Shown here one piece after another: positions 11,863-33,996 of a stretch of 64,000 nt of DNA. The DNA is from a virus. Numbering within the stretch: position 1 is the stretch's first letter; each line of letters opens with the position of its first letter. Made by a program: the position numbers and the translations under genes. The stretch covers positions 1-64,000 of the IMG/VR virus record IMGVR_UViG_3300010885_052266; one strand, given 5' to 3'. The notes beneath the pieces were generated by a model, which saw only the letters and a program-made list of their open reading frames with translations, ran no database searches and had not been told where the DNA came from.

Positions 11863-12274
11863 GCTTTCCCTCCAGGCGGCGAATGGCTGCGTTCGCGATG
11901 TTGATCATCTCCTGATCCCGCCAATCCATCCTGTTGGTCGGCACCATTGGCCCGGCAGTACACTTGAAGCAGGCACGCAGGTTCCACACTTCGCGGGGGC
12001 TGCCGCGCATGCTCCACCTGTCGTTTTCGGTCTCGCAGAGCCGGCACCGCACCTTCGGGCGCTCCGACTCGCGTTCCGGTGGAATCACCTCTTCCCAGTC
12101 GATTGTGATCTTGATCTTCTCGCGCTGGGCCTCTGTGATAGCTCGGATGCGGTCGTTGTTGCGCACGATGGTCCAGAACGCGGCCTGCCGGGCCAGTCGC
12201 TTGGCCTTTGCCGCGGCGGCCAGTGCCTTGCCGTGCTCGGTGAGGACCAGGAAGGGGCCGTCGGTGGCCCCCAT
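11855..12274 (-). CDS. Hypothetical protein with two CxxC motifs
   Basis: CRLC...CFKC. Confidence 0.5.
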   Translation of the reverse strand: MGATDGPFLVLTEHGKALAAAAKAKRLARQAAFWTIVRNNDRIRAITEAQREKIKITIDWEEVIPPERESERPKVRCRLCETENDRWSMRGSPREVWNLRACFKCTAGPMVPTNRMDWRDQEMINIANAAIRRLEGKHA

Positions 12275-13113
12275 TACACGGGCGCCACTGGCGGCACGCC
12301 CTGCTCCTGACCAACCGGGATGAGCCCGGATCGGAGGGTCGAGACAGAGGCTTCCGCCGCGGCAGGACCGCTACTCGGCTCCGTTGCGATGTCCGGCTCG
12401 ACCGGGGGAGGCGGTTGGACCGGCGCCTTTCGCCCCATGACCTGGTCCATCACACCGGGGTCCTGCTTCGCCGGCGAGATGTAGCTGACCTGTAACTGGT
12501 AGGAGCGCCATACTCCATCATTACCATCGATGTCGGACTTCCGGGTCACCTCGACGGCGCCCAGATTCAGGAGCATACGAGCGAGGCTTTGAAGCGCCCT
12601 GTCGGTCTCTCCGACCAGATAGGGCGGGAGCCGGCTCGCAACGTCGTCCCTGACGGCGAAGGTCCAGTTCGCTTTGGAGAATCGCTCGGGCGGCAGCAGC
12701 TGCGGGAAGAACAAGCCTATTTCCCGGGCCGCCGCCTCGACTGAGTCGGAGCCGTGCAACCCATTCGCGGCTTTCTCGGCCGGATCGCCGTAAAGGTGGC
12801 GGAGATGACCCGGGCGCCGATCCTCGATCGACGCTGGACCGATCAGGGCTCGCCACACCTCGACAGCGTAGACGCGCTCCAGCACCAGCAGGATGGCGGG
12901 TTGATCCGGTGCAACGATGCTTGACATGAGGCGCCCGAAGTAAGCCGCCGTCTCATGGACCTGATACAGGTCAGTTGCCTGCCTCGTGGTGATCGGTGCC
13001 TGTAGCGCGCGAACGATCGTGAAATCGGCATCGAGGACGTGCTGCATGATCGCCCCGGCATGGCCCGCGGCCACTGCGCCTGGTTTGATCATGGCAAAAG
13101 TGCGTTCGGTCAT
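12274..13113 (-). CDS. ndk: Nucleoside diphosphate kinase with C-terminal extension
   Basis: ERTFAMIKP, WRALIGP, NGLHGSDS (catalytic His), AAREIGLFF. Confidence 0.9.
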   Translation of the reverse strand: MTERTFAMIKPGAVAAGHAGAIMQHVLDADFTIVRALQAPITTRQATDLYQVHETAAYFGRLMSSIVAPDQPAILLVLERVYAVEVWRALIGPASIEDRRPGHLRHLYGDPAEKAANGLHGSDSVEAAAREIGLFFPQLLPPERFSKANWTFAVRDDVASRLPPYLVGETDRALQSLARMLLNLGAVEVTRKSDIDGNDGVWRSYQLQVSYISPAKQDPGVMDQVMGRKAPVQPPPPVEPDIATEPSSGPAAAEASVSTLRSGLIPVGQEQGVPPVAPV

Positions 13114-14972: not shown

Positions 14973-15113
14973 GCGCCTCTCCTGCGGGTGACTCGCGACC
15001 TTACCAAAACTGGCAGAGCCTTGATTTTGCACAATTCAATACCATATATCAATGTGCATAAACATTTTAATGTTATATCCGCGCGCGGCGCAAGCCGTAA
15101 ATTGCCTCCCACA

Positions 15114-15169
15114 AGCCTTGCCTGCCCCATGGCAGGCGTGACCAGCCGCCACAACGCGGCTGAAAGGCT
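15114..15169 (+). ncRNA. Hammerhead-like three-way junction (type III topology) covering the RBS of ORF 15175
   Basis: AGCCT-T-[GCCTGCC ccat GGCAGGC]-GTGACC-[AGCCGC cacaac GCGGCT]-GAA-AGGCT. Confidence 0.55.
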
Positions 15170-15174
15170 CTGAA

Positions 15175-15489
15175 ATGAACTTACCGCTCCATACCGTGCC
15201 GTCTCTGGGCACAATCGCGGCCCGCTCCCTGGCCACCAACGTGCCGCTTGCGGCAGCGGTGGCGCTGTGCGCGGCCGCTATCCTGATCGTGACCCAATGG
15301 ACACCATCCTGGGTCCGCTCGCGGCTCTTCCTGCGCTCGCTCACGGCGAGCCATGTCCCCGCGACGCTCCTGAACGAGTATCTCGAAACGGCCGACCCGA
15401 TCGCTCGGGCCAGGCGGGACATCCTCTCGCCCGATCTTGACCCCGAGATCGTGGCTGAGCTGCGCAAGGCTCTTGCCGCCGCAGCATGA
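15175..15489 (+). CDS. Hypothetical protein with N-terminal hydrophobic segment
   Basis: ORF directly after the junction motif. Confidence 0.55.
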   Translation: MNLPLHTVPSLGTIAARSLATNVPLAAAVALCAAAILIVTQWTPSWVRSRLFLRSLTASHVPATLLNEYLETADPIARARRDILSPDLDPEIVAELRKALAAAA

Positions 15490-15526
15490 CAGACCGGCCC
15501 GTGGCTCAGCGCCACGGGCCGCGCTG

Positions 15527-15586
15527 CTTCCTACCCCGCCACCGGCGGGGCTGATGCGCTGCTCAGTTGAAGCGGCCGAAAGGAAG
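15527..15586 (+). ncRNA. Hammerhead-like three-way junction (type III topology) covering the RBS of ORF 15590
   Basis: CTTCCT-A-[CCCCGCC acc GGCGGGG]-CTGATGC-[GCTGCT cagttga AGCGGC]-C-GAA-AGGAAG. Confidence 0.6.
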
Positions 15587-15589
15587 ACA

Positions 15590-16336
15590 ATGACCACCCC
15601 ACAGCGCACAATCGTGCGCGCCAACAAACTGATGGCCATCGAGCCATTCCAGTCATCCGAGGAGACTCGATACTATCTCAACTGCGTTCATATCGAACCG
15701 CACGCCGAAGGCGCGATCCTGGTTGCCACCGACGGTCACACCCTGGCCGCCATACTCGACCGGGACGCCCATGTGGCCGGCCTACCCGCGATCTGGGATC
15801 ACCAGATCAAGGGCCGGGTCGGAAAGCGCCTCTCGGCTTGGGCCAAGGCGAATCCGGAGCGCACCATCTGGTGCGATATGCAGCTCAGGCACCCGAACGG
15901 GAACCCTGACATGCTGTCCATCGTCGCGGCCGATAACCCCCAGCAGATACTGCTGGGCAACGGCCAGACGTTGCTGCAGCTGCCCGAGCGCCTCTGGATT
16001 GACGGGACGTTCCCCGAATGGCGGCGAACCGTGAAGCCGATGCCCCCCGAAACGCGCACCAAAGCGCCGAACATCTCGGGGTCTTATATGAAACGCTGTG
16101 TCGACTTCTTCGTGGCTATGACTAGCGAACGGGACGTGCCCATCACGCTGCACCAGACAAACCCTACCGGCCCTTTCCAGGCCGGCCCTGTCCGGGTCAC
16201 ATCCCCAGGGGTCCATGACGTGTTTGTCCTGGTCATGCCGATGGGCAGTGCCCCTCCGACGGAAGCAGAATTCCACCCCTACTGGCTGGAGCTGCCCGGA
16301 GACGCGCAAACCGAAGAGGTGGCACGAGTCGCCTGA
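15590..16336 (+). CDS. DNA polymerase III beta-clamp-like protein (partial, about two domains)
   Basis: RYYLNCVHIE, LVATDGHTLA, IDGTFPEWRR, VLVMPM. Confidence 0.75.
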   Translation: MTTPQRTIVRANKLMAIEPFQSSEETRYYLNCVHIEPHAEGAILVATDGHTLAAILDRDAHVAGLPAIWDHQIKGRVGKRLSAWAKANPERTIWCDMQLRHPNGNPDMLSIVAADNPQQILLGNGQTLLQLPERLWIDGTFPEWRRTVKPMPPETRTKAPNISGSYMKRCVDFFVAMTSERDVPITLHQTNPTGPFQAGPVRVTSPGVHDVFVLVMPMGSAPPTEAEFHPYWLELPGDAQTEEVARVA

Positions 16337-16346
16337 TTTGGTGTAA

Positions 16347-16448
16347 TGAAACCCGCTCCGGCGGGTCGCCCCATAAGGGCTTGATAATACAGAAAACACC
16401 CCCATATCTATTAGGCATACCGGACCGAATAGCCGGTCCTGGCGAACC
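16347..16448 (+). repeat. About 102 bp direct repeat (copy at 17229..17330) starting with a GAAA double-hairpin motif
   Basis: Near-identical sequence at offset 882. Confidence 0.9.
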
Positions 16449-16449
16449 T

Positions 16450-16783
16450 GCTCGGATTACACATCACAACGACTACCGAGCCCGTCGCGCCGCAAGGCGA
16501 CGTTCTGCCTTCCGATCCCAGTATTGGACCCGATCGATGAGGCGCAGAATAGCGCGCTTGTCCCATAGGACTGGGAGATGACCAGCGGTGCGAGACGTGC
16601 CTAGCTGATATCCAACCACGAAAGCCGAGAGTGGCCCATCCATTGGTGTCCGAACCCTCGGCACTGCGGACCCAGTTCCGCACTGACAAAAACCCCCACT
16701 GAAAGGAGAAATCCTCCAATTCAGAAACCCGCCGGTCCTCCCCTCGCGGCGGGTTCCACAGGCGCAATCCCTGTGGCTGATGA
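16450..16783 (+). ncRNA. Candidate structured ncRNA, copy 1
   Basis: No convincing ORF; hairpins covary with 17635..18057; contains GAAA motifs at 16620 and 16724, the latter ending in CTGATGA. Confidence 0.55.
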
Positions 16784-16841
16784 ACATATCTGCGCGTGCG
16801 CCCGTCACGAGAACACCGGGCCGAAACAGAGGATGAAATCC

Positions 16842-17231
16842 ATGAACATCTCCATCCCCGAGCAAGCTGCGAAACCCGCCAAGGCGCCAAAGCCGACGCG
16901 GGTTGCGAAACCCACCAAGCTGCCGCAGCCGACTCTGTCATCTAAGCCCGTCCCGGCGCGTGCGCCGTCGTTGCCGCAGGACCCACCGCCGGGCGAATGG
17001 CCGGCGGGCACCGAGGCGACGATCCGCCGCACATGGGCGCAGCTGAAGCAGATCGGCGAGGCCTGCGGCGTGGTAATGAGGGACTTGTATGACATCGACC
17101 GGCTGAACAAGCGGCGGGCGGAGTTGAAAATGCCGCCGGTCTACGCTCGATTGGCCAAGCTGTCTGCGTCATACGGTGCTTTCGCGTCTCAACCCAACCG
17201 CCTTGATCTTCAAGAGTTGGAACTCGACTGA
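16842..17231 (+). CDS. Chimeric ORF: start of ORF 18116 fused to a copy of the C-terminus of 8523..9404
   Basis: 16722..16862 matches 17996..18136; 16862..17172 is an inverted copy of about 8524..8830. Confidence 0.6.
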   Translation: MNISIPEQAAKPAKAPKPTRVAKPTKLPQPTLSSKPVPARAPSLPQDPPPGEWPAGTEATIRRTWAQLKQIGEACGVVMRDLYDIDRLNKRRAELKMPPVYARLAKLSASYGAFASQPNRLDLQELELD

Positions 17232-17477
17232 AACCCGCTCCGGCGGGTCACCCAATAAGGGCTTGATAATACAGAAAACACCCCCATATTTATTAGGCAT
17301 ACCGGACCGAATAGCCGGTCCTGGCGAACCCCCGATGGGGGCTTGAAGCCAGCACCGTTCAAGAGTCCGGTCGGCGCGGCGATCATCGCCGATCCCGATT
17401 TTCCCTATCACCTTTGCGTCCCAAGGCAGGCCGAGTTTCTGCCGGCGCACACGGGACGGCCCGGGTCACGCGCCAAT

Positions 17478-17610
17478 CCGGCGGAATACCCCCGGAATAA
17501 CCCGGAATTATCCGGTTTTTCGCCGGTTTTTAGACAAAATCCGGCGGATATAGCAGATATATTCAGGTGTTTACTTGAATTACTGCGATTATCCACAATA
17601 TATACTATAC
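17478..17610. promoter_or_regulatory. AT-rich segment with a DnaA box, short CGGAAT/CCGGTT repeats and a sigma70-like promoter
   Basis: TTATCCACA at 17589-17597; TTGAAT at 17575 and TATATACT at 17599. Confidence 0.45.
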
Positions 17611-17634
17611 CAGAGCGGAACAGCCCGCTCCCCT

Positions 17635-18057
17635 ACTCGGATTACACACGACCAAGACTACCGAGTCAGTCGCACCAAAAGGCTGCGCCATTCTCCCCTT
17701 CCGATCTCCAATCATTGGAACCGATCGCCGAGGCCGGCAGAATGAGCGCGGACCCCGTAGGGACGGGACGAGTCGATAGTGCGAGACGTGCCTAGCTGAT
17801 ATCCAAAGCCGAAAGTCGAGAGTGGCCCATCTACCGGTGTCCGAACCCTCGGCTCTGCGGACCCCCGTTCCGCATTGAAGCAACCTCCAAAGCCGAAAGT
17901 CGAGAGTGGCCCATCTACCGGTGTCCGAACCCTCGGCTCTGCGGACCCCCGTTCCGCATTGAAGCAACCTCCAACTATGAAAGGTTCTTGCAATCCAGAA
18001 ACCCGCCGGTCCTCCCATCGCGGCGGGTTCCACAGGCGCAATCCCTGTGGCTGATGA
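17635..18057 (+). ncRNA. Candidate structured ncRNA, copy 2, with an internal 84 bp tandem duplication
   Basis: Homologous to 16450..16783; 17802..17974 is 2 x 84 bp; GAAA motifs at 17811, 17895 and 17998. Confidence 0.55.
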
Positions 18058-18115
18058 ACATATCTGCGCGTGCGCCCGTCACGAGAACACCGGGCCGAAA
18101 CAGAGGATGAAATCC

Positions 18116-18406
18116 ATGAACATCTCCATCCCCGAGAACGCGGTCACCGACGCTGTGGCCGCCGCGATCGAACGCAATCCCCTGGTGGCCGGCATCGTTG
18201 CCGGCGCCGCGGTCGCCACGGTCGCGGTTCTCGCCGCACCTGGTCTCTACCGCCTCGCCCGATCCGGCGCGGCAGCAGTGGCCGACACCGCCGATCATCT
18301 GGCATCCCGCTTGCGGGGCGCCTTTCGTCGGAACCCCCAGCCGGACATGAACAAGCCCGGCCCCACGGTCGCCGCCGACGACTTCGTCGATGCGGCGGCC
18401 GCCTGA
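18116..18406 (+). CDS. Small predicted membrane protein
   Basis: AGAGGA RBS; hydrophobic LVAGIVAGAAVATVAVLAA. Confidence 0.6.
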   Translation: MNISIPENAVTDAVAAAIERNPLVAGIVAGAAVATVAVLAAPGLYRLARSGAAAVADTADHLASRLRGAFRRNPQPDMNKPGPTVAADDFVDAAAA

Positions 18407-18414
18407 ACGATACC

Positions 18415-18448
18415 AAAGCCCTTCGAGTCACCCGACTCGGAGGGCTTT
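18415..18448 (+). terminator. Strong hairpin, probable terminator
   Basis: AAAGCCCTTCGAGTC accc GACTCGGAGGGCTTT. Confidence 0.6.
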
Positions 18449-18508
18449 CGTCGTTTCCGGGGCTGGACACGGGATCGGCGACGCCTCAGCAACAGGGCGC
18501 AGGGATGC

Positions 18509-18593
18509 CCCGGGGTAGCTCAGCGGTAGAGCGAGGGGTCCGCCTTCACGGCGTGCGACGTCAGGGTCGCCGGTTCGATTCCGGCCCCCGGTC
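18509..18593 (+). tRNA. tRNA-like element with canonical D, T and acceptor arms but an aberrant anticodon arm
   Basis: TAGCTCAGCGGTAGAGC D-arm, GCCGG TTCGATT CCGGC T-arm, CCGGGG/CCCCGG acceptor; 36 nt between D and T arms; no encoded CCA. Confidence 0.6.
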
Positions 18594-18770
18594 CGACGCA
18601 GCCACCTCCGCTTTCTCAGCCTGCAAGCTTCGTTCGATCAGACGGCGGATCGCTTCGGCACGGGATGGGAATTGGGGTTGCTCTCGGCGCCAGTCATCAA
18701 TCCGACGTAGGAACTCCTCCGTCGCCCGCATCTGGAAAATCTTATCATGGGTCAATGCCATGGGGTTCAT
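18561..18770 (-). CDS. Ribbon-helix-helix (Arc/CopG-like) regulator
   Basis: FQMRATEEFLRRIDDWRR...PSRAEAIRRLIERSL. Confidence 0.75.
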   Translation of the reverse strand: MNPMALTHDKIFQMRATEEFLRRIDDWRREQPQFPSRAEAIRRLIERSLQAEKAEVAASDRGPESNRRP

Positions 18771-19400: not shown

Positions 19401-20231
19401 ATGCCGAGCAACATCATCCCCTTCGATTTCGAGCGTAAGCGTGTCCGGATCATCAGAGACGAGAACGGTGCGCCGTGGTTCGTCCTGGCCGACGTGTGCC
19501 GGGTGCTGGAGATCGGCAACTCTCGCCAGGTCGCCTCCAAGCTGGACGATGACGAGCGTCGGAAATTGGACATGTCCCCAGAAACCTGGGGGGTCACTAT
19601 TAGTGACGGCGCCAACATCAATGACTTAGGGGCGGGTGAAGGCAACAATGAGGCGTGGATCATCAATGAGTCCGGCCTTTATTCCCTGATCCTCCGCAGC
19701 CGTAAGCCCGAGGCGAAGCGGTTCAAGAAGTGGGTCACGGCCGAAGTCCTCCCCTCGATCCGCAAGACGGGCGGGTATGGCACACAGCGCGACCCGATGG
19801 AGGCGCTGGACGATCCCGACACGCTGCGTAGCCTGCTCCTGAGCTATTCCGGCAAGGTAAAGACCCTCGAAGTCCAGGTGTCCACGCTGGCCCCGAAGGC
19901 CGAGGCGCTGGATCGCATCGCCACCACCGATGGCAGCCTTTGCATCACGGACGCGGCCAAGACGCTTCAGGTGCCGCCGCGCGAACTGTTCCGGTACTTG
20001 CGCTCCAACGGTTGGGTCTACAGCCGAGCGGGCGGGTCGGAGATCGGCTACCAGGAGCACATCAACGCCGGGCGACTGGAGCACAAGACCACCACGGTCA
20101 GCCGATCGGATGGCAGCGAGAAGGCCGTGACCCAGGTCAGGATCACTCCGAAAGGGCTGACCGGGTTGGCCATGGCGTTCCGCAAGAGCCAGCCTGTACC
20201 GGTTCAGGCGGTCAGCGCCAGTCTCCTGTAA
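19401..20231 (+). CDS. BRO-N + KilAC (ANT) phage antirepressor
   Basis: PWFVLADVCRVL, INESGLYSLILRSRKPEAKRFKKWVT, LAPKAEALDRI, QVRITPKGL. Confidence 0.92.
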   Translation: MPSNIIPFDFERKRVRIIRDENGAPWFVLADVCRVLEIGNSRQVASKLDDDERRKLDMSPETWGVTISDGANINDLGAGEGNNEAWIINESGLYSLILRSRKPEAKRFKKWVTAEVLPSIRKTGGYGTQRDPMEALDDPDTLRSLLLSYSGKVKTLEVQVSTLAPKAEALDRIATTDGSLCITDAAKTLQVPPRELFRYLRSNGWVYSRAGGSEIGYQEHINAGRLEHKTTTVSRSDGSEKAVTQVRITPKGLTGLAMAFRKSQPVPVQAVSASLL

Positions 20232-33938: not shown

Positions 33939-33996
33939 ATCCCGAAACCCGCTCCGGCGGGTCCGCAGGCATACCGCCTGCACTGAGGAAATCACC

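Follow-up and report, generated by a model that had tools for sequence, protein, structure and literature searches.

A duplicated structured element ahead of two small genes in a freshwater phage: a candidate leader RNA

Several temperate phages encode structured RNAs in the leaders of their early operons, among them c4 of P1 and P7, CI of P4 and put of HK022, which are 60-80 nucleotides (nt) long. The c4 and CI RNAs pair with sites in their own leader, and the target of the put RNAs is RNA polymerase, which they make read through terminators; put occurs in two paralogous copies, each with a promoter ahead of it, and c4 of P1 lies upstream of a small open reading frame (ORF). GOLLD and ROOL, large structured non-coding RNAs (ncRNAs) of phages, are found near tRNA genes. 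In addition, clustered type II hammerheads flanking single prophage genes have been described (Perreault et al. 2011, PMC3088659; Rfam RF02276). Here we describe a duplicated structured element in the phage record IMGVR_UViG_3300010885_052266 of IMG/VR, which is 100,879 bp long, carries direct terminal repeats, has a G+C content of ~63% and is represented in freshwater and lake metagenomes; the window, that is, the whole stretch of DNA analysed, is its first 64 kb. The element is present on the + strand as copy A (16417-16841) and copy B (17609-18115), within the early/replication region, where transcription runs rightward and both flanking genes also lie on the + strand. We tentatively interpret it, with a little less than even confidence, as a lineage-restricted structured 5' leader that would control both the stability and the translation of the small gene following it and whose 5' domain probably persists separately.

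Alignment of copy A with copy B bore out the proposal of an earlier note, made from the letters alone, that two diverged homologous stretches are present. The bounds given in that note had to be moved, since the true 5' start lies earlier, with a promoter-like site and a hairpin designated H0, and the homologous unit extends 3' past a CUGAUGA sequence to the start codon of the following ORF (16842 in copy A, 18116 in copy B). The 5' ~240 nt of the copies are ~78% identical, with indels of 1, 2 and 4 nt, and the longest identical block within this diverged half is the invariant one noticed earlier, 28 nt at 16588-16615 (identical to 17779-17806). Further downstream, the module M1 is 75-90% identical between the copies, a variable linker ~55% (in a 40-column window), and the final 156 nt (16712-16867 and 17986-18141), which span the ribosome-binding site (RBS) and the first eight codons of the ORFs, 96-100%. 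Because the copies differ by ~22%, compared with 1-2% between strains, copy A is no recent duplicate of copy B. That the core has diverged between flanks that are nearly identical suggests, from the pattern of identity, recombination at shared flanks or gene conversion. A third copy was considered and rejected, as covariance model R1, which gives 225 bits on the 5' domain of copy B (17609-17801, comprising H0, H1-H7 and the invariant block), matches 17299-17396/17541 solely via a repeated H0 and linker.

The element is non-coding, as the earlier note had stated in finding no credible ORF: each frame is interrupted in copy A or copy B, and, whichever frame of either copy is read, the G+C content hardly varies across codon positions 1-3 (0.57-0.64). 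Candidate coding regions, including - strand ORFs of 176 and 142 aa, were rejected on account of stops or indels in the other copy and the flat codon-position G+C. The flanking genes (ORF A, ORF B, the clamp-like gene and ant) have third-position G+C contents (GC3) of 0.77-0.83, and ORF A and ORF B look like real genes because their values are 0.77 and 0.81, respectively.

Each copy begins with H0, a 6-bp 5'-terminal hairpin (copy A, 16422-16439, loop AAUAGC; its homologue in copy B, 17613-17630, loop AACAGC). It is followed by the 5' domain, which in copy A (16450-16576) consists of H1 (16450-16455/16476-16481), H2 (16483-16486/16496-16499), the long hairpin H3-H5 (16503-16549) and H7 (16561-16576), all helices that can form in both copies. 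Three compensatory examples listed in the earlier note are all present, namely GCUCGG/CCGAGC versus ACUCGG/CCGAGU, CCA/UGG versus UCCAA/UUGGA and UCCCA/UGGGA versus CCCG/CGGG. Specifically, three of the six pairs of H0 are changed on both sides and all remain paired, with the loop AAYAGC kept, and one compensatory pair each was found in H1, H2 and H7, together with a one-sided change in H5; a single pair, terminal in H7, is broken. In the curated structure as a whole (H0, H1, H2, H3-H5 and H7; 33 pairs), 98.5% of the cells are paired, with six double changes, half of them in H0, one one-sided change and one broken pair, while moving the 3' partners by 1-3 columns as a control left 0-1 double changes and 27-47% pairing.

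The structured nature of the element was supported by single-copy folds and a two-copy consensus fold as well as by the compensatory pairs. As an unbiased test, RNAalifold was run on the two-copy alignment and on 300 column-shuffled versions in which identical, differing and gapped columns kept their arrangement; the energy was -68.7 kcal/mol for the alignment and -48.8 +/- 5.0 kcal/mol for the shuffles (z -4.0), not one of which was as stable. The consensus held eight compensatory pairs, the shuffles averaged 3.3, and 1% of them had at least eight. The minimum free energy (MFE) from the start to M1 was also low relative to dinucleotide shuffles, with a z of -3.66 for copy A (0/200 as stable) and -2.52 for copy B (2/200 as stable). 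On the + strand the strand test gave a z of -3.7 and a compensatory count reached by 0.5% of shuffles, as against -2.4 and 15.5% on the - strand, and several conserved G.U pairs would be C.A on the opposite strand. Based on the strand test, the orientation of the promoter-like sites and the conserved G.U pairs, the RNA was placed on the + strand; on the evidence of two sequences, the element has the conserved pairing of a structured RNA.

Downstream of the invariant block, copy A carries M1 (16620-16689), which reads GAAA, hairpin, AC, hairpin, CUGA, the hairpins being 16624-16629/16657-16662, with a 27-nt insert, and 16665-16670/16677-16682. M1 of copy A is 75% identical to an 84-nt unit of copy B, and its changes between the copies are one-sided with pairing kept, the outer stem going from G-C to G.U and the insert from GUGG/CCAU to GUGG/CUAC. 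Copy B has two such units in exact tandem (17802-17885 and 17886-17969), followed by a partial TCCAA and bounded by this 5-nt microhomology; the exact duplication reported earlier is therefore present, with its bounds corrected to 17802-17969. A contig from run X3 crosses the junction of the two units without difference, and the related strain X4 has a single unit (17801 joined to 17886), because of which we regard the duplication as a real polymorphism and not obviously an assembly artefact. The variable linker of copy A, M2 (16690-16723), has a local hairpin GGAG/CCUCC and is the least conserved segment between the copies. It leads to M3 (16724-16783), which reads GAAA, 7-bp hairpin, UUC, 7-bp hairpin, CUGAUGA, and then to the 3' leader (16784-16841), which is 100% identical in the two copies and has its RBS, GAGGA, at 16829-16833, 8 nt before the AUG. 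In copy B the linker, M3 (17998-18057) and 3' leader occupy 17970-18115, with the RBS at 18103-18107. A stretch of 55 nt in the 3' leader is enclosed by two copies of an 8-nt direct repeat, ATGAACAT (16779-16849); the first of them opens an 18-codon ORF (16779-16835, MNISARAP...) that stops in the RBS of the main ORF, which likewise begins MNIS. This upstream ORF has no RBS of its own and lies in a region identical in both copies; the arrangement could represent an upstream ORF with coupling or an insertion scar.

We found promoter-like sites of the form TTGAWW-N17-ATATMT directly upstream of both copies. Three strict matches are present in the window, versus 0.02 expected by chance, and with a variant at 17263 there are four sites in 100.9 kb (15021, 16381, 17263 and 17575), all on the + strand between 15.0 and 17.6 kb. 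Site P2 (16381-16409; TTGATA, 17 nt, ATATCT) precedes copy A, and P4 (17575-17603; TTGAAT, 17 nt, ATATAT), its diverged counterpart, directly precedes copy B. Each H0 begins 9 to 12 nt downstream of the second hexamer. Judged from the motif, both promoter use and the 5' end of the transcript are putative. Two 102-nt repeats that are 97% identical lie on the + strand in this region: the first (16347-16448) comprises a junction module (16348-16380), P2, H0 and a short linker, and the second (17229-17330) a junction module, a further promoter-like site, P3, and an H0 identical to that of copy A. The order on the B side is thus the repeat with P3, a short unit with terminators, P4, copy B and ORF B. 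The unique insert between the repeat and P4 (17331-17574, + strand) has ~200 nt with two terminator-like hairpins (17502-17526) and then an AT-rich stretch with an 11-nt direct repeat, AATCCGGCGGA, at 17475 and 17538.

Two further observations concern this interval. A unit of ~200 nt headed by the second 102-nt repeat (together 17229-17530) has several hairpins, ends in two overlapping terminator-like hairpins with U-runs, is ~97% identical in strain X4 and contains no convincing ORF; from its sequence it may be a small RNA gene. In addition, a relaxed DnaA-box pattern, TT[AT]TNCACA, has only three matches, all at two of the promoter regions: one each in the spacers of the 15021 and 17575 sites, the latter a perfect TTATCCACA at 17589, and the third at 15061 on the - strand. 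The repeat AATCCGGCGGA flanks 17475-17548. The promoter/DnaA-box region from 15021 to 17575 could be an operator or an origin-like control region.

The phage has its own gene-junction modules, with about 29 copies of a two-hairpin type in an array at 25.2-39.6 kb, where many upstream genes end at a TGA overlapping the GAAA and the 3' end of the module supplies the RBS of the next gene. We searched 14.5-24.5 kb with covariance model R2, derived from 26 array modules. The modules at 16348 (36.1 bits, E 2e-10) and 17230 (35.1 bits), both within the 102-nt repeats, were clear matches; M3 matched weakly over the full model length in both copies (12.4 bits, E 0.06), and M1 was unmatched at E<=10. 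The earlier suggestion that the element is built partly from GAAA modules thus stands for the flanking repeats, is arguable for M3 and fails for M1, which shares only the layout. Compared with the array, the 102-nt repeats heading both units contain full members and M3 fits with enlarged loops, but an array copy runs straight into the RBS and start codon whereas M3 has 58 further bases, and the 5' domain of the element is not module-built.

Under the tentative leader interpretation, the two copies would belong to paralogous transcription units of the early/replication region, running rightward from the sigma-70-like promoters at 16381 and 17575. Each RNA would start with the short protective hairpin H0 a few bases from its 5' end, followed by a ~170-nt multi-hairpin domain holding the invariant 28-nt block, one or two 84-nt two-hairpin M1 modules, the variable linker and the junction-type M3, and the last 58 nt would carry the RBS of a small accessory gene. 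We infer that selection would act on the leader as an RNA of the + strand, and that its most likely role is control over the stability and translation of the following gene. The 5' domain, from the start to M1 (~200-270 nt), probably persists as a stable RNA in its own right after the coding part is gone. Copy A is part of an exchangeable gene cassette, with copy B resident. In a lake metatranscriptome, X13, the sole contig on 16200-18650 is 197 nt long and matches 16477-16673 with no differences, which in copy A takes in the 5' domain and the greater part of M1; neither end of the contig falls on a repeat boundary, and the unique DNA contig here is 16419-16748. The RNA contig hints at a 5' domain that exists as RNA and lasts longer than the coding part, and the parts of 16200-18650 without RNA cover do not indicate silence.

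Several points weigh against the leader interpretation. The main limit is that only two independent sequences are available, so that the covariation is below the standard of a family alignment; in addition, the curated helices were partly picked by eye, column shuffling does not preserve dinucleotides, and the near-identity of the 3' 156 nt could stem from recent recombination rather than constraint. In strain X4, a C>G change at 17747 abolishes one of the predicted pairs, at the foot of the long hairpin. The promoter motif was built in part from the same sites on which it is scored. The RNA evidence is one contig at a depth of 2.9x, from a run chosen for holding words of the stretch, for which DNA carry-over is possible and which, like any contig, shows neither ends nor strand. 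No + strand terminator-like site was found by the scan inside 16417-16841 or 17609-18115, no antisense target in the downstream leader or the genome was above chance, and no ligand-pocket-like feature was found that would explain regulation by the leader. Specifically, attenuators and riboswitches would be expected to have a terminator or an RBS-hiding helix between the domain and the ORF, and neither was found there, as only a small hairpin of 4 bp, GGAU/AUCC, overlaps the RBS in the MFE fold. Likewise, antisense control of the c4/CI type would call for loops complementary to the downstream RBS region, which they are not beyond shuffles: the best duplexes formed with 16770-16870 were no better for the invariant block, the H1 loop or the entire 5' domain than for shuffled queries (fraction at least as good, 0.27-0.85).

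An alternative that we consider doubtful, though it fares best among the rivals, is a stand-alone ncRNA cassette, in which the 5' domain and M1 would be cut out at the junction-type modules and work in trans, for instance by sequestering a host or phage protein as a decoy or sponge, the ORF being merely co-transcribed. It would accommodate the fact that the only RNA contig covers the 5' domain and M1 and not the ORF, and the domain occupies the position of a gene in the module-bounded array of the phage, with a promoter or junction module before it and further modules after it; the number of M1 units also varies between one and two among strains, and a 28-nt invariant block without an intramolecular partner would suit a binding site. 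However, the modules have no complete ribozyme core, neither a terminator nor a defined 3' end follows M1, complementary targets were not above chance, and the contig cannot separate a processed RNA from an attenuated or decaying leader. Processing at the modules into small RNAs, as the earlier note suggested, would be compatible with this contig. The earlier idea of a trans-acting partner for the array motifs found no backing, as the conserved blocks were complementary to other parts of the genome no more often than expected by chance. A 10-mer of M1, CUGCGGACCC (16664-16673), is complementary to the UC junction (GGGUCCGCAG) of the array modules at 33959, 34375 and 35761, with a fourth match at 2950; as a targeting sequence it was rejected, since it probably reflects shared module sequence and the overall counts are at chance level.

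That the element has no RNA function is, in our view, unlikely. By this account it would be intergenic filler of cassette recombination, made up of duplicated promoters, worn junction modules and hairpins that are terminators or due to chance. The account draws on the behaviour of the related strain X4, in which a 3-kb contig from a 2022 metagenome joins the end of the clamp gene to 17221 via other junction modules and 345 unrelated letters, because of which we consider this strain to be without copy A and ORF A (cassette 16372-17221). Here 16372-17221 is replaced by other module-bounded sequence with the break points inside junction modules; these break points are direct evidence that the junction modules are cassette exchange points. 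In favour of the account, the cassette holding copy A is missing from this strain, and the flanks (102-nt and 156-nt repeats) are 96-97% identical versus ~78% for the core, as recombination at shared flanks predicts; moreover, GC-rich DNA folds well anyway, and no homologue beyond the lineage was found in the searches made. Against it stand six double compensatory changes with one broken pair at 22% divergence, the z of about -4 for the consensus fold and of -3.7 and -2.5 for the single folds, and the 28-nt invariant block inside a diverged stretch. Furthermore, strain X4 keeps copy B at ~98% identity, and among the six differences inside it one changes an A-U pair to G.U and one restores the copy-A state in a loop.

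The searches for relatives were as follows. Among the 4227 models of Rfam 15, only a tRNA (18509-18593) reached its gathering score in the window (the presence of GOLLD and ROOL models in the library was unchecked), and even the best matches within the element were at chance level; ar14, for instance, scored 18.9 bits where 58.8 is the gathering score. The earlier description as an undescribed phage ncRNA or leader therefore holds as far as the absence of an Rfam family match and the placement between a promoter-like site and a small ORF are concerned. The note had also proposed looking for homologues with a covariance model in phage and metagenome sets, and none was found beyond the lineage: blastn against 50,697 phage records gave no homologue of the element; exact patterns of 22-30 nt from the invariant block (as a 22-24-mer) and M3 were absent from the viral, metagenome and genome collections; blastn and R1 gave no homologue on whole viral records sharing a 20-nt hairpin or a clamp homologue; and R1 on 45 metagenome loci gave one weak match only (L081), over a coding start.

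A more speculative combination, which we hold to be rather improbable, is that the 5' domain and M1 form a stable trans-acting RNA 'gene' in the cassette system of the phage, released at hammerhead-derived junctions, with an 84-nt unit that expands and contracts and a role as decoy or antidote against a host factor. The analogy is with the pseudo-ToxI repeats of some phages, which neutralise an abortive-infection toxin.

Active self-cleaving hammerheads that cut the leader, of type II or assembled across modules, are highly improbable. M3 does hold its parts in type II order, with GAAA (16724 and 17998), an A-U-closed stem III, a U/C site, a 7-bp stem I and a perfect CUGAUGA (16777-16783 and 18051-18057), so that both core strands are present; the phage has many hammerhead-shaped motifs, and the clustered prophage hammerheads mentioned above offer a precedent (PMC3088659). 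However, stem II is absent: the flanks of M3 are unpaired, with ACAUAU... after CUGAUGA and ...AUUCA (copy A) or ...AUCCA (copy B) before GAAA, and 10.1/11.1 is A/A in both copies, the kind of mispair next to the core (10.1-11.1, 1.1-2.1, 15.1-16.1) for which candidates were rejected in that study (PMC3088659). The cores of M1 are degenerate, with the GAAA present and CUGACAA (copy A) or UUGAAGC (copy B) as the other strand, and CUGAUGA is found in the window at chance frequency (8 versus 8.3 expected). No Rfam hammerhead was found in 16200-18700, either at the gathering score or at E<=10, and the single match in 14.5-40.5 kb has 21.8 bits and an E of 2.7, against a gathering score of 37. Calling the modules hammerhead-type is therefore not supported, given the missing stem II, a CUGAUGA intact in M3 only and no Rfam match. 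Other folds that were tried (type II, type III via either downstream GAAA, and pairing across modules) had no canonical core, nor did a stem II formed with the invariant block, which has 7/8 pairs but in the wrong place. Judged by their sequence, the modules are best called hammerhead-shaped relics of type II layout, not working ribozymes.

In comparison with the prophage hammerheads (PMC3088659), M3 and, less clearly, M1 share the order GAAA, hairpin, U/C site, hairpin and CUGANGA-like box, and like them the modules are situated at gene or cassette boundaries of a phage transcript; they differ in that stem II is absent here and an intact CUGAUGA is present in M3 only, and nothing in hammerheads corresponds to the 170-nt 5' domain and the invariant block in it. 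Elsewhere, at 15518-15592, just before the clamp-like gene, the layout is nearly that of a canonical type III hammerhead, consisting of stem III (CUUCC/GGAAG, with the RBS inside it), a UA site, a 7-bp stem I, CUGAUG with C for A9, a stem II hairpin and GAAA.

A replication element at the DNA level rather than an RNA, be it a repeat flanking an origin or a signal for single-strand initiation, would fit the adjoining clamp-like gene and the neighbouring AT-rich stretch with its perfect TTATCCACA box and 11-nt direct repeat, but it is no more probable than active hammerheads, as the conserved pairing uses G.U and favours the + strand, the copies have the same orientation, each after a promoter-like site and before an RBS, one perfect 9-mer is expected ~0.8 times by chance in 2 x 101 kb, and the cumulative GC skew has no turn here.

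The genes around the element include a beta-clamp-like gene (15590-16336) upstream of copy A, recognised from PHROG and Pfam hints and from relatives; its protein has relatives of 74-88% identity on short ENA/Logan contigs, and viral and metagenome scans gave only relatives at <=34% identity. ORF A (16842-17231, + strand) encodes 129 aa with a Pro/Lys-rich N-terminal half and a helical C-terminus and has no Pfam or PHROG family match. ORF B (18116-18406, + strand) encodes 96 aa with one hydrophobic helix, and no family was assigned to it, a match to DUF6861 being sub-threshold only; both proteins begin MNISIPE. Downstream of ORF B, after a terminator-like hairpin, an Rfam match marks a tRNA-Arg(CCG) gene (18509-18594). 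This tRNA, at 86 nt and 37.4 bits, is unusually long for arginine, with 30 nt in the anticodon/variable region where the Rfam model expects 17, possibly a long variable arm or an insert. An Ant-like anti-repressor gene (19401-20231) lies downstream of both small ORFs. Elsewhere in the window, the 279-aa product of a - strand ORF (12274-13113) clearly contains a nucleoside diphosphate kinase domain (Pfam NDK, E 1e-30); the ORF is an auxiliary nucleotide-metabolism gene of the phage.

If the finding is real, an undescribed structured RNA would be added to the small set known from phages. An ncRNA in a gene slot of a cassette system bounded by hammerhead-shaped relics would, if real, connect how ribozyme-derived junctions evolved with how early phage transcripts are controlled or what they carry. 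The weight of the case is limited to two family members in one uncultured phage lineage, with no function indicated; the candidate is nevertheless testable, as its promoter, 5' hairpin, invariant block and copy-variable module are defined to the base.

Among the described systems, c4, CI and put resemble the present element as promoter-proximal structured leaders of an early region, put also in being duplicated and c4 of P1 also in preceding a small ORF, and an Ant-like gene is found 1 kb downstream here, as in P1. No sequence or Rfam similarity to these RNAs was found, and the element differs from c4 and CI in the lack of detectable leader complementarity and from put in having no terminator inside its units. 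Like GOLLD and ROOL, it is an ORF-free structured RNA of several hundred bases, and copy B lies ~400 nt upstream of a tRNA gene; it differs from both in being smaller and in being tied to a downstream ORF.

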